Both the position numbers and the translations under genes were made by a program. From Escherichia phage vB_EcoM_ESCO10: a stretch of DNA of 64,000 bases. This document shows, piece after piece, positions 1,335 through 58,980 of this stretch (position 1 is its first letter; each line of letters opens with the position of its first letter). The DNA lies in the sequence record OM386655.1. One strand, given 5' to 3'. The notes under the pieces are model-generated. The model was not told the origin of the DNA. It was given only the letters and a program-made list of their open reading frames with translations, and did not search any database.

Positions 1335-1856
1335 TTAATAACCTCGGTCCTGACGAGCAAAGTTCTCAGCATTTTTCAGATAATACAGTTTAAAGATTTC
1401 TTCAGCAGTCAGACCAAGGCCTTGGAACATATTCAGAACGAAATGGAGAATATCAATCATTTCAAATTTAATTTCGAGCTGGTCTTCAGGAGACAAATCG
1501 TTAATCAAGGTTTCACGACGTTCAGCATGTTGAGCTTTCCAAGGCTTCCATACTGCTGATGCATCTTTTTCACCATTGCTCATACCACCAAGAGAAGTCA
1601 GAAGTTCACGGAATTCATCATCAATATAATCTTTCTGATTACGCAGCCAATCAACAACTTCACCTGCAGTAGCCAAATCATCAGGGTGTCGGTTATATTC
1701 AGGTTTATCTTTAGCCAAACGGACCTGTAAAGATTTCTGCATATCAAGCATAACCTGCAATGGGTCTTTATCTTCGTGAATCAAGGCATTAAAATAAGCT
1801 TCCTCAGCTTTATCAACGCCAGCAATCAAACCACTACACTCATTAAAATGTGCCAT
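1335..1856 (-). CDS. 56: dCTPase/dUTPase (dCTP pyrophosphatase, gp56)
   Basis: 173 aa; strong similarity to T4 gp56 from memory; partner of gene 42 in hmC DNA synthesis. Confidence 0.85.
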   Translation of the reverse strand: MAHFNECSGLIAGVDKAEEAYFNALIHEDKDPLQVMLDMQKSLQVRLAKDKPEYNRHPDDLATAGEVVDWLRNQKDYIDDEFRELLTSLGGMSNGEKDASAVWKPWKAQHAERRETLINDLSPEDQLEIKFEMIDILHFVLNMFQGLGLTAEEIFKLYYLKNAENFARQDRGY

Positions 1857-1860
1857 TATA

Positions 1861-2517
1861 TTATTTCCTATTAAAGTTTTCTATCATTCGTCGATAACAA
1901 ATATCAGGATATCCATTATCGACAGCTATTTTATTAAATTTGGTGCGTTTAGGTTTATTATTATAAACCCATAATTCATAAAGCGCATCATAACTATCCC
2001 ATATTTCTCCTCGCCTAGGATTTGGTAAACCGTATCGAGGTGAATTTTTACCGCTAAATCTTCCTTTTCGAGCTTTACTCATATTAGCCTTGGCTTCATC
2101 GGATATAATTTTATCTTTATGAGCTAGACGCATTTTGGCTTTAGTTTCTTCTGGGGTCTTTTTGCCTTTAATCCATGACGGCTTGCCATATCTAGGATTA
2201 TTTTCACCTGTAACTAATAGTGAATTATTTTCCCTTAATGATGCTATAGTTCTGCTAGTTAATTTAACTCCTTTATTATATCTCATTAAATTAACGGCAT
2301 GATGCAGACCTTTTACTTCAGGATACATTTTTGTTAAAAGCCTATGGGCTATAAAGTGCTCTCTTGGTAATAAAGCCACTAAATTATTTTTATCATCGGA
2401 ACCATTCATACATTTGGGTACAATATGGTGTTCTTCTGTATAATATGGTAAGGACCGCTTGGTACCTCTTAATTTTCCATTAGATATTAATTCATTGTAT
2501 ATTTTTTCATAGTTCAT
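1861..2517 (-). mobile_element. HNH homing endonuclease (mob/I-Tev-like) with NUMOD3-type repeats
   Basis: 218 aa; HNH motif EEHHIVPK...NLVALLPREHFIAH; repeated NPRYGKP / NSPRYG motifs; visibly AT-rich; sits between genes 56 and 61. Confidence 0.8.
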
Positions 2518-2773: not shown

Positions 2774-3802
2774 CTAAATCTTGGAATATTTTGAAAGTCG
2801 CATTTTTGCCATTAAACCTTGTGCGATATTCTCTTTCATATAAGAAAGGATATCGTTTATATTGGCTTTATCTTTCATAACCATATCATTTATATCTTTA
2901 GAAGGCCATGGAGCCTTGTCCCAGAACAGAACCCTTTCACCGGCATCAACTAGTCGTTGCATACGCTTAATTGTGTCAGGATGACGGGGTTCATTGTCCA
3001 TTACCCATGCTCTTGTTTCTTTACATGGAACTATTGATAAGTCTAACGACCCACCAGTAATTGCTATTGCATTAGGTACAAATAATGAATCGATAGGGCC
3101 TTCCATTACCCACACCAACTGACGTTCGTCAACCGTGTCCATTCCATATATTTTTGTAGCTTGGTCGTGAGCTTTAATTGTAATATATTTTTGTGGGGCA
3201 TCTTTACGTAAAGCTCGACCCTGAAAGCTTTCAATTTGTTTATCTTTATTAAAAATAGGAATAACCAAACGAGGCTCAGGTATTTCTTTAGAATAGGTCC
3301 CGGGATTCACTGAGTTAACCAGCGCCGGCCACTCTTTCGTAAACCATAGTCTATTCCATTTGTTTTCGGGAATGCATCGCAGAGTTACATATTTGATAAT
3401 AGGATGGTCTTTAGGCATTCTATCTAATCGTTCACAGAAATTAAGCTTTTCGATGACAGGCATCTTAGCTTTAATTTTTTCAGATATCTCCACCTTAGGT
3501 GTAGCTTGTCTCCCGAACGATTGCTCTTTATGTTTCTCAAGAATATATTCTCGATATAAATCTGGCTCATATTCGTATAGATACTTCTTAATTCCTGCTG
3601 AATAGTCACAATTAAAACAATGCAACATAATAGAACCATCGTTAGCCGGGTAAGCCCAAAATCGAGCTTTGTTCTCATCTTTTTGTGAGTCACCACATAC
3701 ACGACAACGACAGTTTAATTTAAAATCACTACCGGTTACTTGTCTGAATTTAGGTTGGTAATTCAAGGCACGTACAGCAAATTCTTTATCGACATATGAC
3801 AT
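2774..3802 (-). CDS. 61: DNA primase gp61
   Basis: 342 aa; zinc-binding CRCRVCGD...CFNC N-terminus and length match T4 gp61. Confidence 0.9.
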   Translation of the reverse strand: MSYVDKEFAVRALNYQPKFRQVTGSDFKLNCRCRVCGDSQKDENKARFWAYPANDGSIMLHCFNCDYSAGIKKYLYEYEPDLYREYILEKHKEQSFGRQATPKVEISEKIKAKMPVIEKLNFCERLDRMPKDHPIIKYVTLRCIPENKWNRLWFTKEWPALVNSVNPGTYSKEIPEPRLVIPIFNKDKQIESFQGRALRKDAPQKYITIKAHDQATKIYGMDTVDERQLVWVMEGPIDSLFVPNAIAITGGSLDLSIVPCKETRAWVMDNEPRHPDTIKRMQRLVDAGERVLFWDKAPWPSKDINDMVMKDKANINDILSYMKENIAQGLMAKMRLSKYSKI

Positions 3803-4018
3803 TATTTTTCCTTGGGCTCTAAATTAATAGAGCCATTATATCATTCGTTTTTGGATTTTTCTTTACGCTTTTTAGATGGGATTTGTTCAGGCCCTTTGTT
3901 GACGACTGCGCCTGAGGTAGTTCCGGAGGCAATATTAGATGGATTTCCACCCGCATCACCTGCGACCATATCTTCGTTCATGAACTCTTTATACGTTTTC
4001 ATAGGCTCCTGGCCTTAT

Positions 4019-4210
4019 TTATATTACAAAGATTGCTTTGTCACCATTTGCATCAGTGACTTCATAAGTATCTTCGTGGTACAGTGGGATAATCCAAGTT
4101 ACACCATCACCGGCGATAACATGGATAGCTTCTTGGTCTTGTGACACGATTTCATATTCTTCGAACAGTTCGAATACAGAAATATTAGAGCCCGTACACA
4201 TTGCACTCAT
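4019..4210 (-). CDS. hypothetical small acidic protein (63 aa)
   Basis: ORF in the gene 61-41 accessory block. Confidence 0.4.
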   Translation of the reverse strand: MSAMCTGSNISVFELFEEYEIVSQDQEAIHVIAGDGVTWIIPLYHEDTYEVTDANGDKAIFVI

Positions 4211-4406
4211 ATTGTTCCCTTCTTTTAATCAGTTGACGATGCGCCTTTTTAAGCTTACGAATCTGTCTTTTAGTAGGACGTGCAACGTAAGCTTGTGTAG
4301 TTACTCGTCCGAAAACTCCATACTTTGGAGACGGAGTATCAATGAAGACTTCCCATTGACAAGAGTAGCTATATATTGCTTTAGAAAATTGGGTTAAGAC
4401 AAACAT
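4185..4406 (-). CDS. hypothetical small basic protein (73 aa)
   Basis: ORF; Lys/Arg-rich C-terminus. Confidence 0.4.
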   Translation of the reverse strand: MFVLTQFSKAIYSYSCQWEVFIDTPSPKYGVFGRVTTQAYVARPTKRQIRKLKKAHRQLIKRREQYECNVYGL

Positions 4407-4407
4407 A

Positions 4408-4854
4408 TTAACCTCGATTCATGAAGGCGTTAAAAATCTGGTCGTCAATTGAATAAACCGGAGCTTCAAGAATTTTCAAAAGACTGTTTTTGATGTACTT
4501 GCTAGGGATACCCATATTAACGACCTCGTTATTCAATTCATTGTTTGGATTGATGTCTTTAAATTCAAACCCTTCAAACTCAACCTTGTCAGGAATACCA
4601 TCAGCGAAAAAATAAACCAATTGATGTATTGTATTGTACGAAAATAATTTAGACCTCACTGCAATAAGTTCTTGCCAGTGGTTTAATTCTCTATTAAGAA
4701 GTTTATGGGCAAATACAATCCTATCATCGCTATCAACAATAAAATAACCCAGGTATTGATGGTCGTCGCTCCAATACATCCTGTAGGCCTGTGCATTTGG
4801 ATTTTTACAACGAAGCTTTTTAATAACCAAAGTTCTGTTAATCATTTTATTCAC
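4408..4854 (-). CDS. hypothetical protein (148 aa)
   Basis: ORF abutting spackle. Confidence 0.5.
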   Translation of the reverse strand: MNKMINRTLVIKKLRCKNPNAQAYRMYWSDDHQYLGYFIVDSDDRIVFAHKLLNRELNHWQELIAVRSKLFSYNTIHQLVYFFADGIPDKVEFEGFEFKDINPNNELNNEVVNMGIPSKYIKNSLLKILEAPVYSIDDQIFNAFMNRG

Positions 4855-5140
4855 CTGTCACCTCTTTAACAATATTTTTGTTATCGAAATTGGCATCACA
4901 GTACAGAACATAGTTATACTGCATAACACCACCGGATGCCAATTGGTCGGATACTTCTTTAACCATATCAGGACGGTCGCGTTTAGTGATATTCATGATA
5001 TCAGCGTAAATCTGATGTTCAACTGATTCTTGGTCTGCAGTCATTGACCATTCACAAAGGTCTTTATCCATTCCAGCCGTAACTGGAGCTGTACCACATG
5101 ATGCTACTGTAAGGATTGCTGCGATTAATAACTTTTTCAT
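4847..5140 (-). CDS. sp: Spackle periplasmic protein (lysozyme inhibitor / superinfection exclusion)
   Basis: 97 aa; lipoprotein-like signal; DKDLCEWSMTADQ...GGVMQYNYVLYCD matches T4 Sp from memory; RBS GAGGAG. Confidence 0.85.
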   Translation of the reverse strand: MKKLLIAAILTVASCGTAPVTAGMDKDLCEWSMTADQESVEHQIYADIMNITKRDRPDMVKEVSDQLASGGVMQYNYVLYCDANFDNKNIVKEVTGE

Positions 5141-5152
5141 TTTTAACTCCTC

Positions 5153-5198
5153 GTTAGTTGATAGGTCTATAGTATCTCAACCATAGACCGTTGTAAAC
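5153..5198 (-). promoter_or_regulatory. T4-type early promoter (conserved ~45-bp element, -35 GTTTAC)
   Basis: member of a 13-copy repeat family; minus strand reads GTTTAC-spacer-ATACTATAGACCTATCAAC, directly upstream of sp. Confidence 0.55.
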
Positions 5199-5352
5199 AA
5201 CTATTTTTCGCCTTCGATAGAATAACCTGTTAATTTGTAATATTCTGATCGGGCTTCAACCAGGGCCAATTCAATATCACTAACACAAATGCCTTCTGGG
5301 TTTTTAAGTTGGGTTTCGACAACCAAAATAAGGTATTTTAAAATGTCTTCCA

Positions 5353-5493
5353 TTATTCCTCGCCTTCATGTTTATGAGCAAATTCTTCGTATTCACTGTC
5401 ACAGTCTAAACACGTGGCATTGTCCCAAGCATCAAATACCGCTTGGTCTTCACAAACAGAACAACCACATACTACACATTCAAATTCTTCCAT
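5353..5493 (-). CDS. small Cys-rich zinc-ribbon-like protein (~45 aa; absent from the ORF track)
   Basis: hand translation gives MEEFECVVCGCSVCEDQAVFDAWDNATCLDCDSEYEEFAHKHEGEE; start lies immediately after the dmd stop. Confidence 0.4.
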   Translation of the reverse strand: MEEFECVVCGCSVCEDQAVFDAWDNATCLDCDSEYEEFAHKHEGEE

Positions 5494-5697
5494 TTAGATT
5501 TCCTCTTTACGCCAATCAGATTCAAAAACTTTTACATCGTTGACAAAGGCTTTTACCAACGCTTTATTGATTTCAGCAAATTGCGAAGTAGCCCATTCAA
5601 TCATACTTTGGTCACTAACATCCAGCGCGGTTTCTTTGGTAAACATATTACCATTTTCAAACCAACCAATAAACACTACGTTCTCTAATTTGTACAT
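5494..5697 (-). CDS. dmd: Dmd (discriminator of mRNA degradation; antitoxin against RnlA/LsoA)
   Basis: 67 aa; VVFIGWFENGNMFTKE...WATSQFAEINKALVKAF matches T4 Dmd from memory. Confidence 0.8.
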   Translation of the reverse strand: MYKLENVVFIGWFENGNMFTKETALDVSDQSMIEWATSQFAEINKALVKAFVNDVKVFESDWRKEEI

Positions 5698-6015
5698 TTA
5701 GATTTCCTCACAGAACGCCCATTCAGCATGATATACTGTAGCGCCTTTAGTATCATTTAAACAAACCACATCTACCGGAGCAATTACACGATATAAACGA
5801 GGTTCTCCTCCCACTGAACGTGCTGCACGTCCAGCATAAATCTTAGCCAAACCGATATTTTCAGTAAAGAACACACGATTAAGGTTTTTCTTACGACCGG
5901 TTTCAGACAGAACTCCTGTTTCCTCAGGAGGACAAAGCATATTACTGATATTAGCAACACTACAACTTCCGTGATAATACACTTTATATTCTGCTTTACA
6001 GTCGATGGTTTTCAT
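5698..6015 (-). CDS. hypothetical protein (105 aa from ATG; track start is a TTG extension)
   Basis: ATG with RBS GGAGAA at 6013-6015; the track N-terminus MENK is translation of the conserved upstream leader. Confidence 0.5.
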   Translation of the reverse strand: MKTIDCKAEYKVYYHGSCSVANISNMLCPPEETGVLSETGRKKNLNRVFFTENIGLAKIYAGRAARSVGGEPRLYRVIAPVDVVCLNDTKGATVYHAEWAFCEEI

Positions 6016-6027
6016 TTTGTTCTCCAA

Positions 6028-6068
6028 GTTGATAGGTCTATAGTATCATGTTTATAGACGTTGTAAAC
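6028..6068 (-). promoter_or_regulatory. T4-type early promoter (repeat family member)
   Basis: GTTTAC ... ATACTATAGACCTATCAAC on minus strand. Confidence 0.55.
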
Positions 6069-6085
6069 CCCTAAAAACAAAAAAA

Positions 6086-6099
6086 GGAGCCGAAGCTCC
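6086..6099 (-). terminator. intrinsic terminator (GGAGC-UUCG-GCUCC + U-run) after gene 41
   Basis: inverted repeat with UUCG loop immediately after the gp41 stop, followed by T-run on minus strand. Confidence 0.6.
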
Positions 6100-7539
6100 T
6101 TAAAATTTGATAGATGCTGCTAAATCGTCCAAATCGCTTCTATTAACACGTGTCTGGCGATTGACCTCTGCTTGGCGATTCATTTCACCCGTAGCCTCAC
6201 GAACAGTATTCACTGGACCTGGATTGCTATCGTCTTCAACTTCATACCAACGTTGGTTACCTTTCTTAACACCAATCTTAAATTTGTTGTAGTAGCTCTT
6301 ATCACCATATCGAGATTTAAGCTGCTTAACCATCTGCATACCCATCTGAGCAAACTCTTCTGTCTCGACTACGCCTAACATAAAGTCAGCAGTATGAGCA
6401 ATACCAAAGGATTCAGCAATATCAGCCATGTCAATTTCGGCTGCAACGTTCGCACCACGAGTAGTCTGGGCTGCCGTCCACAACAACAATTTCTTCTCTA
6501 CTGCAAGACCGCGAAGTTCTTCTGCAACCATCTTAATTAAACCATAACTGTTTTCAGAGAAAACTTTAGTACGAGATGAAGCACAGATGGCCAAGTAGTC
6601 AACGATAACGACCTGCGGAACAAAGTTTTGTTTCAGTTTGTATTCGTTTAATAATGCACGGAATGTATCGGCATTAGCGCCGCCTGTAGGATACTGTTTA
6701 ATCTTTAAACGACCCAAAGTAGCAGTTGAACGCCACTTATCCATCTTAGCTTTATATTCAGGCCATGAGACATGTCCATCATCAATATCATCTAGTGATA
6801 CATCCAGAAGATTAGCATCGATACGCTTAGCGCATACTTCCTCAGCCATCTCCATGGAGATATAAAGAACATCGTAACCAGATTGAAGGTAATCAGCAGC
6901 CAATGAACATAGCCCAAGAGACTTACCTACGTTTGTTCCTGCCAACAATACGTTTTCAGTACCAAACTCTGCTCCACCCTTAGTAATCTTATTCAGAATA
7001 TTAAGACGGAATGGAATTTTACGGGCTTTGTCCGAATAACTTTTAAAACGTTCTTCATAGTCATCCATCCAATCGTGGCCTAACTCAGAATCGAAACAAA
7101 TCGATAATGCATCACGCATGATATCTGGGATAGCACCAATACCTGGGAGTTTTCTATTTTGTTGCTCAACCGGAAGGTCGGCATTAGTTTGAATTTCAAT
7201 GATTTTTGAAGTAGCATTATACATCGCTGCCTTCTGAACATATTTCTCTGTCTCTTTAACCAACCATTCTTGGTCTTCAGGGCCAGCGTTCAGTGAACTT
7301 AAAAGCTCTTTAGCTCCTTGGTGTTCGACTTCTGAAAGGGGGGTGTTATCTAATGCAATACTCAAAGCATTTTTAGAAGGCACCGCATTATATTCATTGA
7401 CGTGTTTTTTGATTTCTTTGAAAAGGGTCTTTGCTGGACCCTGGTCAAAATAAGAATCATTCATATAAGGCCAGACCTTAGTGAAATAATCACTATTGCC
7501 TAGCAGTTGAGCCAAAATAGTTTCTACCACTTCCACCAC
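6100..7539 (-). CDS. 41: replicative DNA helicase gp41 (DnaB-like)
   Basis: 479 aa; near-colinear with T4 gp41 from memory; Walker A GTNVGKS. Confidence 0.95.
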   Translation of the reverse strand: MVEVVETILAQLLGNSDYFTKVWPYMNDSYFDQGPAKTLFKEIKKHVNEYNAVPSKNALSIALDNTPLSEVEHQGAKELLSSLNAGPEDQEWLVKETEKYVQKAAMYNATSKIIEIQTNADLPVEQQNRKLPGIGAIPDIMRDALSICFDSELGHDWMDDYEERFKSYSDKARKIPFRLNILNKITKGGAEFGTENVLLAGTNVGKSLGLCSLAADYLQSGYDVLYISMEMAEEVCAKRIDANLLDVSLDDIDDGHVSWPEYKAKMDKWRSTATLGRLKIKQYPTGGANADTFRALLNEYKLKQNFVPQVVIVDYLAICASSRTKVFSENSYGLIKMVAEELRGLAVEKKLLLWTAAQTTRGANVAAEIDMADIAESFGIAHTADFMLGVVETEEFAQMGMQMVKQLKSRYGDKSYYNKFKIGVKKGNQRWYEVEDDSNPGPVNTVREATGEMNRQAEVNRQTRVNRSDLDDLAASIKF

Positions 7540-7859
7540 CTCTTAGATTTAATTTTATCCAGTTCTTCTTGTATTTGCATTGTAACACATTTTTCTACAT
7601 GAAGCGCTAGCTCTTCTTTTCGGTCTTCGGAAGGTGTTCCGAAATCAACCGACACTTTTCCATCTTTCTCAATAATAATATTCATCACATAAACGATGTG
7701 AGCAGTGCCATCGGGTAAAGTAAGCATAATTTCCTGCTTAACAGAACCCATTGACTTACGGATTATATCTAGTGATTTCTCATAATACAGAGGGTCACTA
7801 GGACCCTCTTCAGTATCTTTAACAAAATTATCTAAATCAGATAAATCAGTCATGGTCAC
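7524..7859 (-). CDS. 40: gp40-like head vertex assembly chaperone
   Basis: 111 aa; position between 41 and uvsX as in T4. Confidence 0.6.
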   Translation of the reverse strand: MTMTDLSDLDNFVKDTEEGPSDPLYYEKSLDIIRKSMGSVKQEIMLTLPDGTAHIVYVMNIIIEKDGKVSVDFGTPSEDRKEELALHVEKCVTMQIQEELDKIKSKRWWKW

Positions 7860-9027
7860 TCACAAAATTCATGTTTTCTAAATCGTTTTCGATATCAGCA
7901 GCGCTTTGAGCGTCACCATTCAATTTAACTGCAACGTTCTTAGAGACTCGAGAGTTAATAAGGTCGTTCACTGCATCGTCAACTTCTTTAATAGAATTAA
8001 TTGCACCAAGCTTATACTTATTCTCGATTGCGGTACGGAACGGAGCATGTTTAAACAGTGGTCCCCAGAACTCGACACAATCGGTAGCTTTAGCGCGCCA
8101 TGATTTTTCTTCTTGGACCATTTCACCTGTGGTTTCGTCAAGAAATGCACGATTATACCAACCGGCTTTAGGTTTGACAACAAAACCAATTTCAGTAGCC
8201 ATTTCGAGCAGACCACTAAACGGGTCGATACCGCCTTCAAAGTTCACGGTAATTGGGAACGTTGATTTCTCTTTAACCGTACGAGATTTCTCTGCTTTCA
8301 AGGTAAAGTCATAACCGGTGAGCTCAGTACCATCTTTAACTTGGCGCTTAGAAATAAAGAACACGGTAGAAGCAGAATACAGAATACCAGTACCACCACC
8401 CATAATCTCTTTAGGATACATTCCGCCGATTTCCATAGCCGTATGGTTAATTGCTACACAAGGAATGTCCTTGATAGTCAGATATGGGGTAACGATACGG
8501 AACAAGGATTTCAGAGACTTGGCACGAGTCATATCACCTACAACTTTCTCGTTCAAAGCATCTTCGGTTTCTTTCTTAGAAGCTGTGTTACCAATGGAGT
8601 CGATAAAGATAATAACCTTTTCGCCACGGGTAATTTCTTCTAATTGGTTAGTCATGTCAACCTTCAGTTGTTCGACTGACTGGATTGGTGTGTGGACCAC
8701 ACGTTCCAGGTCCACACCCATTGAACGGAAATAAGATTCTGAAGCACCAAACTCAGAGTCATAGAACAAACAAATTGCGTCTGGATATTTCTTCATATAT
8801 GCCGCGACCATAGTTAATCCAAACAGAGTTTTAAAGTGTTTAGATGGAGCAGCAAAGATTGTCAAACCTGATTGCAAGCCTGCATTCAACGCACCGCCTA
8901 ATGCAATATTAAGCATAGGAATACGAGTAGGAACTTCATCGCGCCCATTAAACAATTTAGATTTGGTCAGGTCGGCGGTCATTTTAGAAGTAGAAGCTTT
9001 AATCAAACGGGATTTTAAATCAGACAT
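7846..9027 (-). CDS. uvsX: UvsX recombinase (RecA-like)
   Basis: 393 aa; N-terminus MSDLKSRLIKASTSK and overall match to T4 UvsX. Confidence 0.95.
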   Translation of the reverse strand: MSDLKSRLIKASTSKMTADLTKSKLFNGRDEVPTRIPMLNIALGGALNAGLQSGLTIFAAPSKHFKTLFGLTMVAAYMKKYPDAICLFYDSEFGASESYFRSMGVDLERVVHTPIQSVEQLKVDMTNQLEEITRGEKVIIFIDSIGNTASKKETEDALNEKVVGDMTRAKSLKSLFRIVTPYLTIKDIPCVAINHTAMEIGGMYPKEIMGGGTGILYSASTVFFISKRQVKDGTELTGYDFTLKAEKSRTVKEKSTFPITVNFEGGIDPFSGLLEMATEIGFVVKPKAGWYNRAFLDETTGEMVQEEKSWRAKATDCVEFWGPLFKHAPFRTAIENKYKLGAINSIKEVDDAVNDLINSRVSKNVAVKLNGDAQSAADIENDLENMNFVSDHD

Positions 9028-9104
9028 TATATTTTTCCATAGGCATCATTATATTTTACTCACGTTTTAAGATAGGGTAATTATATCACTTCACAATTAC
9101 AGCA

Positions 9105-9998
9105 TTAAAGGACCACGTCCTCATAACGTGGCATTTCGTACTCGGAATGAATATGAGCACCAAAATAAATGAATTCAGCCAAACCAGGATGGAATACTAA
9201 ACCAGGGTTCTCATGATAAATGATATGTGGTCTTGATTTCAGAATCTGGTAATATTCAACCTTACTCGGTTTGAATTTAATAATCTCTACATCAGGACGA
9301 TAGTCTCCACGTTTAAATGAATCGTTGGGGTCAGTGATATAGAGTCGAGCACCTTCAGCCGCAGCTCGGTCTACAACTCGTTCGAATTGGTAGCATTTAT
9401 CAGAGATACGAAATGGGTGAAAAATACCATCAATTTTAATAGGCGCTAGACCATCAGAGTAACGCTCAATTACTGCCGGATTAATTACCTTTTGGTCTAC
9501 AAAAATCTTATCAGAGGATGCACCTCGTGACACCAGGACGTCTTTCTGGCATTGATTCAGGACTGTAGTATAAATCGAACGTTCGACTGAAGCCACATCA
9601 ATATCAATGAATTCGTCGATATAATAACGAGGAACTTCAGGGTCCATTGTGATATTAAAGTTGAATTGTACAGTCTGGGCACCATCATAACCTGTGATAT
9701 CAGTTACCAACCCTGAGCAGTCATAGTATTCGATTAATGAATCGACTACGAACTCGTTTTCAGACCAGAAATGTTTACGGGTTTCATAAGCATTTTCTTT
9801 ATACCAAAGTGGCACAAAATTCAGTTCAGGGAATAACTCGATGCACTGGTTGATATCGCTCGAATTTCTAGGATAAGCCAGATAATCACCTGGCCGAGCA
9901 CGGTTTAAATGGAGTTGAAAATTGCCGTCCTTAAGGACAGCATATTCACCCGTTTCGTAACTACGCATACTGAAAATAGGAACGATAAACAGACTCAT
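9105..9998 (-). CDS. hypothetical protein in the beta-glucosyltransferase slot; candidate hmC DNA sugar transferase
   Basis: 297 aa; occupies the uvsX-42 position where T4 has beta-gt but does not resemble T4 Bgt; ATGA-coupled to gene 42; function inferred from position only. Confidence 0.6.
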   Translation of the reverse strand: MSLFIVPIFSMRSYETGEYAVLKDGNFQLHLNRARPGDYLAYPRNSSDINQCIELFPELNFVPLWYKENAYETRKHFWSENEFVVDSLIEYYDCSGLVTDITGYDGAQTVQFNFNITMDPEVPRYYIDEFIDIDVASVERSIYTTVLNQCQKDVLVSRGASSDKIFVDQKVINPAVIERYSDGLAPIKIDGIFHPFRISDKCYQFERVVDRAAAEGARLYITDPNDSFKRGDYRPDVEIIKFKPSKVEYYQILKSRPHIIYHENPGLVFHPGLAEFIYFGAHIHSEYEMPRYEDVVL

Positions 9999-10693
9999 TT
10001 CAGGAAACCTCGGACGTAGTCAAAATCACGTTCAAATACGTGTGCACTAACCATGGTGTGAGAATACGTACCCAAACCAACACCACACTGCTCTGCAATA
10101 AAGGCCATCAGTTTGCCCTGCAGATAGAAATCAAGCTGCATAACAACAGCACAGTTCTGTGAACGCATATGGGTATGTGCATACAAACGACCATCACGAA
10201 TGTAATACGTTACCGAATCAGTACAAGGATATTCTAGGGATTCGTCAGAATCAAGGAGAGCTTGGTCTTGTTCTTGGAGAATCTGGAACACAACTCTTCG
10301 CGAGTTAGGCTTTTCTTTAAGCTCTTTAAGTAGGGCTGGGAGCTGGGCCACAATTCGAGGTCCATAGAAAGTGTTGAAGTTTGCAGGCAATACGTCACTT
10401 TTCGGCTTATCAATGAACTTAGCAACATTAGGGTATTCCTTAAATGCTTCGGCGGCATCAGTACCACCGGAAATCATAAACTTCCAGAAAGATTCGGCAT
10501 AATCATAGTTGATACGATTAATACGAGGGTCAGTGAATTTATAGGTGCTTGCATCCAGTACTTCTACCGAAGCAGAACCAACTTCATAACAACGTCCGAT
10601 ACGAGAATCAACTGCAAACTGCGGAGCTTCCAGGATTTCTTCGTTCATTTGTTTAAATGCATTTTCAAAACTAACAGCGGTAATGTGTTTCAT
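9995..10693 (-). CDS. 42: dCMP hydroxymethylase gp42
   Basis: 232 aa; thymidylate-synthase-like; matches T4 gp42 from memory. Confidence 0.85.
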   Translation of the reverse strand: MKHITAVSFENAFKQMNEEILEAPQFAVDSRIGRCYEVGSASVEVLDASTYKFTDPRINRINYDYAESFWKFMISGGTDAAEAFKEYPNVAKFIDKPKSDVLPANFNTFYGPRIVAQLPALLKELKEKPNSRRVVFQILQEQDQALLDSDESLEYPCTDSVTYYIRDGRLYAHTHMRSQNCAVVMQLDFYLQGKLMAFIAEQCGVGLGTYSHTMVSAHVFERDFDYVRGFLK

Positions 10694-11226
10694 TTATTCA
10701 CCTTATTTTCAATATATTCATTCAGACGTTTTAATTCTACCATATCAACATTAAGCAAATTATTATGGCCATCATGATTTAAGATTTTAAACACGTTTTC
10801 AAAACATGTTTCGTATTGTCTGACAGTTAGGTTGAACTCATCTTTAGTTAATTTAATAAGGTCGTCTTCAAAGTCTTCATCCAACGGATTACGAGTTAAA
10901 ATAACCTCAATGATATTGAACTCTTCTTTGAATTCTTTCCAGTCTTTAAGCTCTTCTAATGGGTCCATTTCACCACGAAGGAATCCTGAGTAAACAATAT
11001 TACTAGGATACCCACGGTCTAAGATATAGACAAAATTTGGGTCTAAAAACTTATACAGAGTTTCAACTAGAGCCTTATCATTATCAGTTCCTAATGAAAT
11101 ACATTTACCGTTAATCTTCTTAGGAAAATCAATAAGCTTAAAATTAGTATTATTAAGTAATTTGTTAATTAAAGTAGACTTCCCGGAATTATCCGGGCCG
11201 TCGATAACAATGATTTTTGGTTTCAC
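10690..11226 (-). CDS. P-loop nucleotide/nucleoside kinase-like protein (dNK/TMK-like)
   Basis: 178 aa; Walker A IVIDGPDNSGKST at the N-terminus and DRGY motif; ATGA overlap with neighbours. Confidence 0.7.
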   Translation of the reverse strand: MKPKIIVIDGPDNSGKSTLINKLLNNTNFKLIDFPKKINGKCISLGTDNDKALVETLYKFLDPNFVYILDRGYPSNIVYSGFLRGEMDPLEELKDWKEFKEEFNIIEVILTRNPLDEDFEDDLIKLTKDEFNLTVRQYETCFENVFKILNHDGHNNLLNVDMVELKRLNEYIENKVNK

Positions 11227-11606
11227 GGATGATATGCCTTATAGGTTTCAAGAGTTCCTTCACGAACCATTTCTTTAAAGTGGTCGGGACGGATTGCTCG
11301 GTCATCAATGATAAAATTATAACTCGGCTTGTGTGTAAGCAAATTGTGATATTTCAATCCAATTTTTTCAAGGTTCTTAACCAATGCAGGAACTACTTCA
11401 ACCAAGATTCGACCAGGGCCACATGAAGTCATACCACGGGCGGTGAACAATGTAATCTCGCACCCTTCATCATAAAGCTTGTTAATCATGGACACCATTT
11501 CAGTGTCCGGTTTAAAGTTTTCATAATCACGGTCATGGTTCCAAATCGTGATTGTGTTATCTATATCAAAACATAAATGCGGCTTATTTTCTACTCGATG
11601 GGACAT
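11223..11606 (-). CDS. HAD-superfamily phosphatase (small, capless)
   Basis: HAD motifs I CFDIDNTIT, II LFTAR, III HKP, IV IIDDR; start chosen as the ATG overlapping the upstream stop (TAATG); track ORF begins 5 codons earlier. Confidence 0.75.
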   Translation of the reverse strand: MSHRVENKPHLCFDIDNTITIWNHDRDYENFKPDTEMVSMINKLYDEGCEITLFTARGMTSCGPGRILVEVVPALVKNLEKIGLKYHNLLTHKPSYNFIIDDRAIRPDHFKEMVREGTLETYKAYHP

Positions 11607-13279
11607 TAAATTTTCTTCCATTGTTTGTGGAGTTCAGTAGAACCTGTAGGTTTATATTTTACACCAGTTTCCTGGTCAAGCAAAACCCACTTATCAGGAC
11701 AACGAGTAATAATTTGTGCCGTAATAGGGTCACGAACTTCATCAACGAATTCACCTGTAATAAGCTTACGCTTACGAGGGTGCCGCTTAAGCAACACACT
11801 CAGTTGGTACAAACCATTGTAATAAGCACCTAGAGCTTTCAGAGGATTATTCTTAAAGTAACCCGCTAGCGCCATCCAAATAACAGCAATCCAGAGCTTG
11901 TGCTTAAATGTACACATCGGAATATCGTCTAAAGGCATGACCTTTTCAATATCAACGAATACGCGAGTTCCATTACGGGTTAAGCCACCCCATAGAGGGT
12001 CTGAGTTAAATTTATCATAGCCATCGATAGAATAAAGAACCTTAGCTTCATCATAAATCGCAGGGCCTTTAGAACTATTGCCGAAATAACCACGTGGGTC
12101 GATGATTTTAATATCACCTTCGTCCGACAGCATAATATTACTGTAGTGCGGGTCGCCATGAATAAGTTGATACGGTTCTTTATGTTCAGACAGAATTTCT
12201 AAGGCATGACGAAGAAGTTTTTCTGGATTACCAACCTTGAAATCGTTAACATGGGTGATGCCCTGTGGAGCAAAGCCTTCAATCAATCCAGCAATAGAAG
12301 CATTACGAATCAGGACCTTGTCCAATACTTCTTTCTTAACATCAGAATACCATTGCTCATCAGATGGGTTATCGATAGTTCCGCCAAATGAACGTAATGC
12401 ACTAATGACCTTATAAACCATGAGGACTTTAGTTTCTTTAGACATAAACCGGTAGGCGTCCGCCATAGTACGGCCAAAAATACGTTCCATCTTAATAAAT
12501 TCACCTGGAGCAAAGTCTACAATGCTCGGAACGAATTCAGAATCAATAGAATTATACCAATTGATTTCTTTAGATTGAATTTCTTTACCTAATTCGTTGG
12601 TTGGTACTTTAATAGCCAGATTCTCAGTGAATTCTAATTTATTAAATTCGCGATTAATTTCAGAATCTTCATGAGCCTTGGCCAGTTTCAGTTTATCGCC
12701 AACATCAACTACAAAGTCCAGCTTACGTTCAGTCAAATAAACCATTGAATCCAGATTGTCCGCAAGGTCTTCGCCGTAATTAGAGCGGTCGAATCCTGTC
12801 CAATTCGCCACCTGATACAAACCAACTACACCACCACCTGTACCAATTTCACGTAAGTACGGTTCTTCAAATGTAAAGCGACAATCGGTCCCATAGGTAT
12901 AACAATAATCATTACCCCACTCAACTTTATGGCCTTCAGGAATTATGTCACACCAGTTAAATAGAACGTTATGCCCGATAATATCTTCAGCAATGCAATC
13001 AATAGCATGAGCTGAACCGTTAGCAACATCCACATTACGAATAGTGAATTTAGGCTTATCACTAGTAATCATGTTAATGGATTTAATATAGCCTTTAACG
13101 AGGTCGTTAAATTTGCTGTGAATAACCAGAATAATTTCATCTGATTGGTTACTATACAAATCATACAAATGCTTTAATACCGTATGTTGTTTATAGTTAA
13201 CCAATACCTTAGGGATTTCATTAGTAATTGGATACAACCGTGAGCCAAGACCTGCGCCTAAAATAACAACCTTTTTCAT
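11606..13279 (-). CDS. bifunctional sugar-1-phosphate nucleotidyltransferase (N-terminal) / APH-choline-kinase-fold kinase (C-terminal)
   Basis: 557 aa from ATG with GAGGAA RBS; N-terminal VVILGAGLGSRLYPIT (GlmU/RmlA-type motif); C-terminal HGDPHYSNIML...IDPRG (Brenner catalytic loop of APH/CK kinases). Confidence 0.8.
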   Translation of the reverse strand: MKKVVILGAGLGSRLYPITNEIPKVLVNYKQHTVLKHLYDLYSNQSDEIILVIHSKFNDLVKGYIKSINMITSDKPKFTIRNVDVANGSAHAIDCIAEDIIGHNVLFNWCDIIPEGHKVEWGNDYCYTYGTDCRFTFEEPYLREIGTGGGVVGLYQVANWTGFDRSNYGEDLADNLDSMVYLTERKLDFVVDVGDKLKLAKAHEDSEINREFNKLEFTENLAIKVPTNELGKEIQSKEINWYNSIDSEFVPSIVDFAPGEFIKMERIFGRTMADAYRFMSKETKVLMVYKVISALRSFGGTIDNPSDEQWYSDVKKEVLDKVLIRNASIAGLIEGFAPQGITHVNDFKVGNPEKLLRHALEILSEHKEPYQLIHGDPHYSNIMLSDEGDIKIIDPRGYFGNSSKGPAIYDEAKVLYSIDGYDKFNSDPLWGGLTRNGTRVFVDIEKVMPLDDIPMCTFKHKLWIAVIWMALAGYFKNNPLKALGAYYNGLYQLSVLLKRHPRKRKLITGEFVDEVRDPITAQIITRCPDKWVLLDQETGVKYKPTGSTELHKQWKKI

Positions 13280-13339
13280 TATCTGTTCCTCAAGTGAATG
13301 TAGGTACATTATACACTATTTTTAATAAATTTCTATTGC

Positions 13340-13840
13340 TTAAATCTTATCTTTACCGTATTCCATACACTGTTCTAATGCGGCAGGCACTTTGGTCTTA
13401 AGCTTGTTGATTTGTTTCTTATAATCACGGGCCTTATCAAAGCTTTCAGTTTCGAGCATTTCGTAATAACGGGCCTCATGGATGGAAATCTGTAGATTGA
13501 TATGATTATAACACATTGAGTACAGTTTCTGTTTCTTATATAGGTCGTCTTGTCGCTTCATTTCTGCCTGGTGTTTGGCAAGTACGGCTTCGCGCTTAGA
13601 CTCTTGTTCACGTTGAAATTCAATTTCACGAGCCGCATATTTACCGCAGTTATTTCCGCATTGGTTATTAGCTCGGGTATAAGTAATTCCCGACCCGGCG
13701 CGGAACTTAACTTCACCATCATACTGTTTCTGTTCAGCTGCAATACGAGCTTTACCTACTTCGTCAGCTGTAATAGCTTCACCGTATTGGACTGCACACC
13801 CAGAGAGTAATAATGATGCTGCGATAATTAGCTTTTTCAC
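13340..13840 (-). CDS. lipoprotein (166 aa)
   Basis: signal peptide with lipobox LLSGC; charged coiled-coil-like remainder. Confidence 0.6.
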   Translation of the reverse strand: MKKLIIAASLLLSGCAVQYGEAITADEVGKARIAAEQKQYDGEVKFRAGSGITYTRANNQCGNNCGKYAAREIEFQREQESKREAVLAKHQAEMKRQDDLYKKQKLYSMCYNHINLQISIHEARYYEMLETESFDKARDYKKQINKLKTKVPAALEQCMEYGKDKI

Positions 13841-13983
13841 GATGGTTCCTTAATTAAAACAGTTATACTTAATTTGTGCTATAAGAATAATCCATCCAAT
13901 GATTAGTGTTGGAATCATCGGTGGAATAGCCACTGCCCAATAAACGGTAAAGGCAGTCATTATAAGAAATAAAATAATTATTT

Positions 13984-14220
13984 TCATTGTTTAACAATAA
14001 TGATTTGTGCATTTGATTTACGTTCAGCGGCGATCGCCCAGATTAAAGCCACTACCCAACCAATCATCGTCCAACCCAACAGGAGATTAAGGAAGAAAAT
14101 TCCTACATTACTACGAGTGCCTCGCAGAAGAGCTAGAATCCATGGTAAGAAGTAACCAATGAACATAACGACCAGAGAACCGAATCCTAAAACACCTGCA
14201 CTAACGATTAAAGCTTCCAT
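13984..14220 (-). CDS. small two-TM membrane protein, Imm-like (superinfection immunity) by position
   Basis: 78 aa; two hydrophobic helices; located between genes 42 and 43 as imm in T4. Confidence 0.5.
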   Translation of the reverse strand: MEALIVSAGVLGFGSLVVMFIGYFLPWILALLRGTRSNVGIFFLNLLLGWTMIGWVVALIWAIAAERKSNAQIIIVKQ

Positions 14221-58221: not shown

Positions 58222-58229
<8 letters not shown>

Positions 58230-58980
58230 TTTTATTTCCTAATAATTTATCAATAGTAGTGTATAGTTCAGAAAGGGTTCCGTTATTTTCAATAACAACG
58301 TCACCCGGTAAAATTGGTAGACCCGCTTCAGTAATGTGCGAGTCTTGTACTTGACCGGTATCAGCGCGAACTACGTGAATAATCGTAGCACCCATCGCCC
58401 TGAGCGAATCAATTTCATGTGTTTGACGAACATCAGGTACGACATAGTATTTCGCATCAGAATATATTCTATCAAAATAGTCTAAAGCGAATAACTTAAC
58501 CCAATACATCTTATCAAATTGGTTAACAATAACATCGGTCCCAAGGGTCTGCATGAGACGACGTACTGACCAATTGTTAATATTATTTATTACTTCAAAC
58601 AGGTAGTCTTTTGTTTCTTCAGACAAATACTGGATAGTAGGGCCGTAATGATACTGGGTACAGACATCAATTCCTTTAATAGGAAGTATATTATTCAGTT
58701 TAACGATAGCATGTTCAAAGATGTCAATAACATCATATGGTTTTAAAGGAAGGATTTCTTCGCGGTTGTATCCAATACCTTCAAAACAATTAAAATCTAA
58801 TTTAGGCATATAGCTACGATCGAATACGGGGTCATCAGATATGTATTCGTAAGCTTCTGCTAGATACTTTTTAATAGGCCCAGCGAGCTGGAATTTAACA
58901 GAATCCATATTCTCAATTACATAGTTAGCAACGGTGTCCTTACCGCTACGTTTGAGTCCTACAATTGATATTAGTTTCAT
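58222..58980 (-). CDS. 1: deoxynucleoside monophosphate kinase gp1
   Basis: 252 aa; P-loop GLKRSGKDT; position as T4 gene 1. Confidence 0.85.

Follow-up and report, generated by a model that had tools for sequence, protein, structure and literature searches.

The 64-kb stretch of DNA analysed here (the window) is 96% identical to the Dhakavirus phage VR5. At positions 9105-13279 it carries five consecutive minus-strand open reading frames, all with the borders given in the initial annotation (Table 1). The unit is separated from its upstream neighbour by a 60-nt gap, which holds a promoter-like site, and from uvsX by a gap of 77 nt.

Table 1. Genes and features of the five-gene unit and accessory genes elsewhere in the window
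Feature	Position	Strand	Basis and remarks
GT-B (GT4-like) glycosyltransferase, 297 aa	9105..9998	-	homolog of RB69 gp46:47 and DLP3 gp79
Predicted 5-hydroxy-dCMP synthase (TS homolog), 232 aa	9995..10693	-	TS superfamily; putative flavin/O2-dependent cytosine C5 hydroxylase; T4 gene 42 position
Thymidylate-kinase-like (TMK-like) P-loop kinase, 178 aa, GTG start	10690..11226	-	thymidylate-kinase fold
AfhF-type HAD phosphatase, 127 aa	11223..11606	-	PDB 9iqw match, HAD motifs
AfhE-type bifunctional enzyme (fusion protein), 557 aa	11606..13279	-	N-terminal sugar-1-phosphate nucleotidyltransferase and C-terminal APH/choline-kinase-fold sugar kinase
Promoter-like site TAGAAA-16-TATAAT	13308..13335	-	consensus scan; ~30 nt upstream of the unit's first gene
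gp56-type dCTPase/dUTPase	1335..1856	-	Pfam dUTPase_2, 27.9 bits; accessory, outside the cluster; predicted to supply dCMP and remove dCTP
gp1-type deoxynucleotide monophosphate kinase	58222..58980	-	Pfam DNMK, 300 bits; accessory, outside the cluster

The fusion gene begins at an ATG with GAGGA 8 nt 5' of it. An alternative frame of 567 aa would start at 13309, inside the TATAAT of the promoter-like site, and this overlap favours the start at 13279. For the HAD gene another ATG is available at 11621; the start at 11606, also chosen in the initial annotation, is favoured because the HY126 gene is annotated from the equivalent position. Promoter-like sites are not more numerous in the region than expected by chance in the consensus scan, so that the site is suggestive by its position alone. 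The genes had been described as linked by ATGA/TAATG stop-start overlaps. Read directly from the sequence, all four junctions do overlap (TAATG with a 1-nt overlap between the fusion and HAD genes, ATGA at the kinase/TS homolog and TS homolog/glycosyltransferase junctions), but the HAD/kinase junction is GTGA rather than ATGA. Translational coupling of the five genes is real, yet it is generic for such genomes: 32 of the 63 adjacent same-strand junctions in the closest annotated relative overlap in this way, and runs elsewhere reach six. It is the gene content, not the overlaps, that gives the unit its meaning.

The TS homolog had been taken for gp42 dCMP hydroxymethylase, an identification that does not hold. 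It matches the crystallised flavin-dependent 5-hydroxy-dCMP synthase of HY126 (PDB 9iqu/9iqc/9ir2) with 79% identity (E 1.5e-125), but T4 gp42 (1b49) with only 24% (E 5.6e-6). When aligned with ThyA, its residue C157 corresponds to C146, E154 to L143E, N180 to D169N and D188 to N177D. Of these, D169N has been published as diagnostic (PMC13326640); T4 gp42 retains D at this position. For RB69 and DLP3, 5hodCMP synthase activity has been reported with 18O2 labelling (PMC13326640).

The fusion of a nucleotidyltransferase with a kinase is borne out by Pfam matches to NTP_transferase (34 bits, cut-off 21.2) and APH (24.6 bits, cut-off 23.2), with the motifs of both parts intact (GLGSRL at residues 10-15, PKVL at 23-26, HGDPHYSN at 374-381 and IIDPRG at 392-397). 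The N-terminal domain has LicC (1jyk) as its best PDB sequence match and also matches NCBIfam MurU; over its full length the protein is 43-45% identical to HY126 AfhE. It is therefore predicted from sequence to act as a D-arabinose-5-phosphate 1-kinase and UDP-arabinofuranose pyrophosphorylase, both activities being reported for HY126 AfhE in the summary of PMC13326640, which cites He et al. 2026 and treats AfhF alongside. The small HAD protein is likewise a phosphatase as expected, 64-65% identical (64% by BLASTP) to HY126 AfhF (the sequence of PDB 9iqw, E 1.2e-54), with the DxDxT motif as DIDNT at residues 14-18 and IDD at 100-102. It also matches the capsule-biosynthesis phosphatase TIGR01689 of NCBIfam (E 4.7e-14), and is probably an arabinose-1,5-bisphosphate 5-phosphatase yielding Araf-1-P. 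The sugar route originally suggested, from A5P through the 1,5-bisphosphate and Ara-1-P to NDP-Ara, agrees with the HY126 report as summarised in PMC13326640.

The P-loop protein has the thymidylate-kinase fold and probably acts on modified dCMP, converting 5-hydroxy-dCMP to the diphosphate. The gp1 ortholog of RB69 already phosphorylates 5hodCMP in vitro (PMC13326640), which leaves the need for the TMK-like kinase unexplained. The gp56-type gene corresponds to VR5 gp027, annotated as 'similar to T4 gp56'. The 297-aa protein, in the slot directly downstream of gene 42 where T4 carries beta-gt, has the anticipated glycosyltransferase fold (GT-B), and its matches include the T4 DNA alpha-glucosyltransferase; no homolog of T4 beta-gt was found. 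It is the likely first arabinosyltransferase, with 5-hydroxycytosine as acceptor.

We consider the unit, with a probability of roughly 80%, to be the Dhakavirus version of the arabinosyl-5-hydroxycytosine (5ara-hC, 'Afh') DNA hypermodification system and the most compact one known. The gp56-type enzyme would yield dCMP, which the TS homolog would hydroxylate at C5 with flavin and O2. The TMK-like kinase, the gp1-type kinase or both would make the diphosphate of 5-hydroxy-dCMP, and 5-hydroxy-dCTP would be incorporated by the phage polymerase instead of dCTP. The C-terminal kinase of the fusion protein would phosphorylate D-arabinose-5-phosphate at C1, the HAD phosphatase would take off the 5-phosphate, the N-terminal nucleotidyltransferase would form UDP-arabinofuranose, and the GT-B enzyme would place arabinose on the 5-hydroxyl, giving an ether-linked sugar. 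The activities of these particular proteins are predicted from homology, folds and catalytic motifs; those of the hydroxylase, AfhE and AfhF have been demonstrated for orthologs, as far as PMC13326640 summarises them. The same paper explicitly lists the syntenic cluster for Dhakaviruses and places Dhakaviruses and Marfaviruses among the arabinosylation clusters. Homologs of the glycosyltransferase, fusion protein and kinase occur in 352, 367 and 344 phage records, respectively, largely of the same genera. A literature search turned up no chemically analysed Dhakavirus DNA.

Orthologs of all five proteins are present in HY126 (Mosigvirus, Afh genes; PDB 9iqu/9iqc/9ir2, 9iqw and 9iqz), RB69 (gp45-gp55 and gp3) and Acinetobacter phage DLP3 (gp76-gp83); relative to HY126, identity is 79% (TS homolog), 66% (first glycosyltransferase, GT1), 64% (HAD), 43% (fusion) and 37% (kinase). 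The clusters share their location between DNA polymerase and uvsX, D169N and the catalytic motifs. Four proteins of these phages have no homolog in the window: the A5P isomerase, the 386-aa U32-family protein, the small chorismate mutase paired with it, and the second (RB69 gp3-type) glycosyltransferase. Homologs of the isomerase, U32 protein and gp3 were not found in 145 of the 170 kb of VR5 either, and VR5 has no such annotation for any of the four. The kinase gene lies between the HAD and TS genes, whereas it follows GT1 in the HY126-type cluster. The module is 76-86% identical to that of Marfavirus; the polymerase is 69% identical to that of Marfavirus and closest to Mosigvirus (82%).

The likeness to T4 is one of slot and logic: a TS-superfamily enzyme is followed by a GT-B DNA glycosyltransferase, and the general order is modification of dCMP, replication, and then glycosylation. 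T4, however, uses folate-dependent hydroxymethylation rather than flavin/O2-dependent hydroxylation, draws on host UDP-glucose and requires no genes for sugar activation. The resemblance to the ADP-heptose route (HldE/GmhB) seen in the initial annotation stands for the three-step logic (kinase, phosphatase on a bisphosphate, nucleotidyltransferase, with kinase and transferase fused), but as analogy and not homology. The kinase has the APH/choline-kinase fold, with no PfkB/ribokinase match by Pfam, and lies C-terminal to the transferase. Among families, the HAD protein matches the EcbF/BcbF capsule phosphatase (TIGR01689) best. Foldseek matches of phage HAD proteins to GmhB have been described (PMC13326640). 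AmgK/MurU (MurNAc recycling) and LicA/LicC (phosphocholine) also pair an APH-fold small-molecule kinase with a MurU/LicC-type nucleotidyltransferase. Their substrates are unphosphorylated and receive the phosphate at the anomeric position, and no phosphatase is needed, whereas the substrate here would already carry a 5-phosphate that must be removed.

That a gp42-type hydroxymethylase makes hmC and the sugar is attached to its hydroxymethyl group, giving arabinosyl-hmC, is extremely improbable. The gene-42 position, the TS superfamily, the annotation in many GenBank records and the ara-hmC reported for RB69 by Thomas et al. 2018 (PMC6024577) speak for it. The identities and the D169N residue given above speak against it, and the RB69 assignment is erroneous according to NMR and 18O2 labelling (PMC13326640) and to PMC13390438. 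Arabinose, named in the initial annotation for RB69-like phages, stands as the published sugar of RB69, but its base is not hmC: the sugar is ether-linked to 5-hydroxycytosine (PMC13326640, PMC13390438), and the cluster matches this system. Nor do we uphold the proposal, also made there, that the P-loop protein is a 5-HMUDK-like kinase of the modified base in DNA; action on DNA or on a sugar rather than a nucleotide is very unlikely, even though fusions to HhH-GPD- or UDG-like domains, which are DNA-glycosylase folds, occur in some of its distant metagenomic relatives (P0159, P0160 and P0182).

Unlikely, too, is an arrangement in which the 297-aa protein activates the sugar, or glycosylates 5-hydroxy-dCMP before replication, the TMK-like kinase then phosphorylating a bulky arabinosyl-5hodCMP beyond the gp1 kinase. 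It would give the otherwise redundant second kinase a role, and the TS-GT1-kinase trio is kept even in the hexose-using phage RL38J1. The Thanatos ortholog TH1_063 shows UDP-xylose pyrophosphorylase activity in vitro (PMC12838424), and the glycosyltransferases of DLP3 by themselves failed to arabinosylate 5hoC-DNA in vitro; the authors of that study cannot tell whether mononucleotide or DNA receives the first arabinose (PMC13326640). The fold, however, is GT-B with a DNA alpha-glucosyltransferase match, not that of a pyrophosphorylase, and the canonical nucleotidyltransferase motif is already in the fusion protein. Moreover, every T-even glycosylation known to us is post-replicative. Finally, the sugar could differ, because the fusion protein belongs to a separate branch without adjacent isomerase (Dhakavirus, Marfavirus and Providencia phages), 72-99% identical within and 42-50% to all isomerase-carrying phages. 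Use of another host sugar phosphate, such as ribose-5-P or a xylulose-derived one, would fit the missing isomerase and the hexoses of other 5hoC phages (RL38J1). It is nevertheless unlikely, since E. coli makes A5P itself via KdsD/GutQ (Kdo pathway). The phosphatase and GT1 are each 63-68% identical to those of the enterobacterial arabinose-type phages HY126, LC53 and F48, a divergence not above expectation; the AfhE proteins of isomerase-carrying phages themselves show a divergence of 52-59%; and the published classification is with arabinosylation clusters.

The arabinosyl-5-hydroxycytosine pathway, which supports the initial interpretation in part, is already known from sister phages, in which it was resolved in 2025-2026. 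Given the missing isomerase and second glycosyltransferase, we predict that A5P is supplied by the host and that the product is mono-arabinosylated. What is specific to the present phage is this minimal set, which dispenses with the isomerase, the U32/chorismate-mutase pair and the second glycosyltransferase.

[quoted passage not shown] The phage is T4-like and falls in the genus Dhakavirus; its region 9000..13400 shares 96.3% identity with Escherichia phage vB_EcoM-VR5 and ~93% with JS10 and JS98. By every feature testable, the cluster belongs to the published arabinosyl-5-hydroxycytosine (ara-5hoC) system: it encodes a thymidylate synthase (TS) homolog with the D169N substitution, an AfhE-type fusion protein, an AfhF-type HAD phosphatase, a thymidylate-kinase-like (TMK-like) kinase and, directly downstream of the TS homolog, a GT-B glycosyltransferase of the RB69 gp46:47 type (GT1). 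The accessory arabinose-5-phosphate (A5P) isomerase and second or third arabinosyltransferase (RB69 gp3 type), which serves di- or tri-arabinosylation, are not in the window. This finding is already known, because Dhakaviruses are named among the genera with a syntenic cluster (PMC13326640); chemical analysis of any Dhakavirus DNA was not found in the literature searched.

Features of the window (start..end) and of comparison loci (start-end), with stop/start junctions, protein identities to Mosigvirus HY126 and Marfavirus F48, and public labels of relatives' genes
Feature	Coordinates (strand)	Junction with next gene	HY126	F48	Public labels
gp56-type dCTPase, accessory	1335..1856
MobE-type homing endonuclease gene	1861..2517 (-)
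Extended -10-like site TGATATAAT	9080..9088 (-)
GT1 (297 aa)	9105..9998 (-)		66%	68%	'RNA polymerase binding protein', hypothetical
TS homolog (232 aa)	9995..10693 (-)	ATGA	79%	86%	'thymidylate synthase', 'dCMP hydroxymethylase'
TMK-like kinase	10690..11226 (-)	ATGA	37%	76%
HAD phosphatase (AfhF)	11223..11606 (-)	GTGA (kinase start GTG)	63%	84%	'phosphoheptose isomerase', 'capsule biosynthesis protein'
Fusion protein (AfhE)	11606..13279 (-)	TAATG	45%	82%	'GlmU', 'UDP-glucose dehydrogenase', hypothetical
166-aa protein, lipoprotein signal MKKLIIAASLLLSGC	13340..13840 (-)
45-aa transmembrane-like ORF	13850..13987 (-)
DNA polymerase			82%	69%
gp1-type dNMP kinase, accessory	58222..58980
U32 locus, HY126 (L002)	5845-7005
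U32 locus, F48 (L008)	7675-9077
U32 locus, Providencia phage PSTCR6 (L009)	8493-10102
U32 locus, LC53 (L010)	8681-10191
U32 locus, SdyM_006 (L012)	8826-10735
Two TMK-like kinase paralogs, PSTCR6 (L009)	7021-8265
Distant 5hoC-type cluster (L014)	3129-10512

The TS homolog had been called gp42 dCMP hydroxymethylase. That call does not hold: identity to T4 gp42 is 24% (PDB 1b49, E only 5.6e-6), versus 79% to the HY126 hydroxylase, whose sequence is found in the PDB entries 9iqu, 9iqc and 9ir2 labeled "thymidylate synthase" (E 1.5e-125). In an alignment of E. coli ThyA, T4 gp42, the HY126 enzyme and the window protein, the catalytic cysteine is kept (C157), the position of ThyA N177 is an aspartate (D188), which points to dCMP as the substrate, and the position of ThyA L143 is a glutamate (E154). 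The position of ThyA D169 is an asparagine (N180) in the window protein and an aspartate in T4 gp42. RB69 gp48 and DLP3 gp80 use a flavin cofactor to convert dCMP to 5-hydroxy-dCMP (5hodCMP), O2 being the source of the oxygen (Lee et al., NAR 2026, PMC13326640). D169N marks 5hodCMP synthases, and all nine of the nine further D169N homologs assayed made 5hoC (PMC13326640). Because D169N identifies such enzymes, the TS homolog is assigned from its sequence as a 5hodCMP synthase and not a hydroxymethylase.

The fusion protein matches the Pfam families NTP_transferase (N-terminal) and APH (C-terminal), both above cut-off, in line with the RmlA/GlmU-type and APH/choline-kinase-type domains expected of it. 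Its GxGxRL/PKxL and HxDxxxxN/IID motifs are intact, and it aligns end to end with HY126 AfhE (43-45% identity, E 9e-144). The adjoining gene, rightly taken for a HAD phosphatase, encodes a protein that retains the DxDxT motif and is ~63-64% identical to HY126 AfhF (64% by BLASTP; E 1.2e-54 against PDB 9iqw). HY126 AfhF is a phosphatase that needs Mg and turns the 1,5-bisphosphate into arabinofuranose-1-phosphate, according to the summary of He et al. 2026 in PMC13326640. The HAD phosphatase of the window would likewise convert arabinose 1,5-bisphosphate to arabinofuranose-1-phosphate, and the acceptor of the arabinose would be 5-hydroxycytosine. The sugar route first proposed matches that of HY126 as summarised in PMC13326640, but its acceptor, hmC, has to be replaced by 5-hydroxycytosine. 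The arabinosyl-hmC named for RB69-like phages has also been overturned, as both PMC13326640 and PMC13390438 call the earlier RB69 assignment (Thomas et al. 2018, PMC6024577) wrong.

GT1 was not assigned to a family at the sequence level by Pfam, NCBIfam or other family searches. Its structural model (pLDDT 95.5) has the anticipated glycosyltransferase fold and superposes on GT-B enzymes, with values of 17.8 for 6kih, 14.0 for the HY126 glycosyltransferase (9iqz) and 13.2 for the T4 DNA alpha-glucosyltransferase (1y6f). The entry 6kih is also the published top match for RB69 gp46:47. On this model, GT1 is a GT-B glycosyltransferase, putatively acting on 5hoC-DNA. The Thanatos ortholog has been reported as a UDP-xylose pyrophosphorylase (PMC12838424).

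Two known systems serve as comparisons. The cluster is not of the T4 glucosyl-hmC type: closeness to gp42 with a retained aspartate at D169 is absent, no homolog was found in the window or in 145 kb of VR5 with T4 beta-gt as the query, and only the small ORFs a-gt.2 to a-gt.5 are annotated in the T4 alpha-gt slot of VR5. The description of the GT1 gene as occupying the beta-gt slot is correct, because the T4 interval (segA, beta-gt, gene 42, imm, imm.1) holds beta-gt beside gene 42. The HldE/GmhB route to ADP-heptose is alike in its way of working, as had been suggested, but its kinase and transferase folds are unrelated to those of the window; membership was rejected, as the Pfam domains are of the APH/choline-kinase and RmlA/GlmU types, with none matching PfkB. 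The kinase/transferase pair of the window resembles AmgK/MurU and LicA/LicC. A distant 5hoC-type cluster was detected in a metagenome contig (JAXOUH010003483.1, GCA_034680565.1). Besides a dCMP deaminase and a dUTPase, it encodes a TS homolog of 394 aa in which D169N appears as RSNN, and its TMK-like kinase carries an HhH-GPD-like domain as a fusion. An FMN reductase (PF03358) and a SIS isomerase (48% identity to that of HY126) are also present, as is an AfhE-like protein of 624 aa; the 123-aa ORF that comes next has no similarity to AfhF that could be detected. The dedicated flavin reductase of this cluster fits a flavin-dependent hydroxylase mechanism.

The stop/start overlaps reported as ATGA/TAATG are seen at three junctions; the HAD/kinase junction reads GTGA. 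Overlaps were rejected as a special signal because about half of all junctions overlap in such genomes (in the annotated segment of VR5, 32 of 63 junctions between same-strand genes, with runs of six). The fusion gene start at 13279 has GAGGA 8 nt upstream, and a promoter scan places a TAGAAA-16-TATAAT site ~30 nt upstream of it; an alternative ATG (13309) falls within this TATAAT. The HAD gene start is equivalent to the annotated HY126 start. The absent intergenic space and the one promoter-like site suggest that the five genes form a single transcript, a reading that stays tentative because promoter and terminator counts are at chance level. The unit is flanked by uvsX on one side and by a lipoprotein-like gene, Imm and DNA polymerase on the other. 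The -10-like site in the 77-nt gap between the GT1 gene and uvsX suggests that uvsX has its own promoter, and the five-gene unit may therefore end at 9105. The 166-aa lipoprotein-like protein, whose gene lies after Imm and before the cluster, has a match in PHROG 1754 (unknown function) but none in Pfam and is probably unrelated to the modification pathway.

The TMK-like kinase was compared with 5-HMUDK by occurrence and fold: its fold is TMK-like, and the phages that have it are essentially only cluster carriers. Homologs were detected in 344 of 50,697 phage records (tblastn), which essentially coincide with those holding the other cluster genes. With 71 representatives among 1.84 billion proteins, this is a small family. 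A TS domain is joined to the kinase in one relative, and the gene of another lies next to that of a D169N TS homolog within a metagenomic cluster. Rhizobium phage RL38J1 uses hexoses, yet there too a TMK-like kinase accompanies the TS homolog and GT1. From this co-occurrence, the RL38J1 trio, the small family size and the TS fusion and neighbour, we infer that the kinase is tied to modified dCMP and to neither DNA nor the sugar. As 5hodCMP is already phosphorylated by the gp1-type kinase of RB69 (PMC13326640), the TMK-like kinase could be superfluous or act on another substrate. A PDB search gave no entries for the HY126 TMK-like kinase or the HY126 Peptidase_U32-family (U32) protein. In the cluster of PSTCR6, two paralogous TMK-like kinases (45% mutual identity) are encoded next to each other, and the DNA polymerase gene of this phage is split by an inserted ORF. 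The MobE-type gene of the window adjoins the gp56-type dCTPase gene, as annotated in VR5.

The DNA polymerase is nearer to Mosigvirus, whereas AfhE, AfhF, the kinase and TS are nearer to Marfavirus and GT1 is roughly equidistant. These distances suggest a mosaic ancestry in which lineages horizontally exchanged the block of sugar-activation and kinase genes. In phages without the isomerase (Dhakavirus, F48 and PSTCR6), AfhE forms a separate branch, with 71-82% mutual identity and 44-52% identity to all others. This gives a small probability to the reading that the divergent enzyme uses another sugar in this phage. The gap is undramatic, however, as the divergence among AfhE proteins of isomerase-carrying phages (52-59%) is nearly as large.

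Between polymerase and uvsX, HY126 and LC53 share the order isomerase, small ORF, AfhE, AfhF, U32, small ORF, TS, GT1 and kinase; LC53 has in addition an endonuclease between AfhF and U32, and its small ORF before TS is a chorismate mutase. RB69 gp45-gp55 correspond in function to this order (Table 1 of PMC13326640). The window has only AfhE, AfhF, kinase, TS and GT1. No homolog of the A5P isomerase (SIS domain), the U32 protein or the RB69 gp3-type second glycosyltransferase was found in the 64-kb window or in the 145 of 170 kb of VR5 that lie outside the structural genes at 95,000-120,473, nor one of chorismate mutase in the window. None of the four is annotated in VR5, where the rIIA.1-gp39 slot holds two small ORFs only and no gp3-type glycosyltransferase. 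The isomerase is present in RB69, HY126, DLP3 and LC53; we therefore treat it as accessory rather than defining. It is also absent beside the cluster in F48 and PSTCR6. In the phage collection, GT1 homologs occur in 352 records, isomerase homologs in 276 and second-glycosyltransferase homologs in 212, the last only in Mosigvirus-type coliphages and Acinetobacter phages. The isomerase, the second glycosyltransferase and the U32/chorismate mutase pair are accessory genes of the ara-5hoC system.

An unannotated 45-aa transmembrane-like ORF overlaps the Imm stop and is homologous to the 47-aa ORF that separates the A5P isomerase from AfhE in HY126/LC53 (57% identity, E 1e-12). It may be a remnant indicating that the Dhakavirus lineage lost or replaced the isomerase. 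E. coli makes A5P for Kdo via KdsD/GutQ. Because the isomerase and second glycosyltransferase are missing, we predict host-supplied A5P and mono-arabosylation in this phage.

The U32 protein is ~85% identical among HY126, F48 and PSTCR6. In F48, PSTCR6, LC53 and SdyM_006 a small protein is encoded after it, immediately before the TS homolog; those of F48, LC53 and SdyM_006 match Pfam CM_2 (chorismate mutase) above cut-off, and that of PSTCR6 is homologous by BLAST. At this spot, HY126 carries nothing but an ORF of 40 aa, which is uncharacterised. Chorismate mutase makes prephenate. The U32 proteins TrhP, RlhA and UbiU/V serve in hydroxylations that depend on prephenate and not on O2 (PMC6599085, PMC5727448, PMC10990095), and by analogy the pair could provide a second, O2-independent route to 5-hydroxycytosine. 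PMC13326640 labels the U32 protein "sugar or heterocycle reductase", without mention of prephenate. It is possible, though unlikely (roughly one chance in four), that the cluster of Dhakaviruses represents a naturally minimal system in which five genes suffice, the host A5P pool (KdsD/GutQ) is drawn on, only the mono-arabinosyl form is made and, because the U32/chorismate mutase pair of relatives is lost, O2 dependence is strict. If so, the phage would compete with Kdo/LPS synthesis for A5P, and a gut phage unable to modify its own DNA anaerobically would be unexpected.

JS98/VR5-type coliphages, which are in use in phage-therapy trials, have long been known to have a "gene 42" and no glucosyltransferase (PMC2993671). 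The cluster would account for the protection of their DNA against restriction and CRISPR. The assignment as 5hoC with arabinose, not hmC, matters for predicting how sensitive these phages are to type IV restriction and to DNA-glycosylase defence, and for phage sequencing, engineering and genome annotation, since the current GenBank labels are misleading; public GenBank/RefSeq annotations of the five genes in relatives are inconsistent and mostly wrong. With the pathway already published, the added value is the smallest gene set, found in this genus, which helps to sort essential functions from those supplied by the host.
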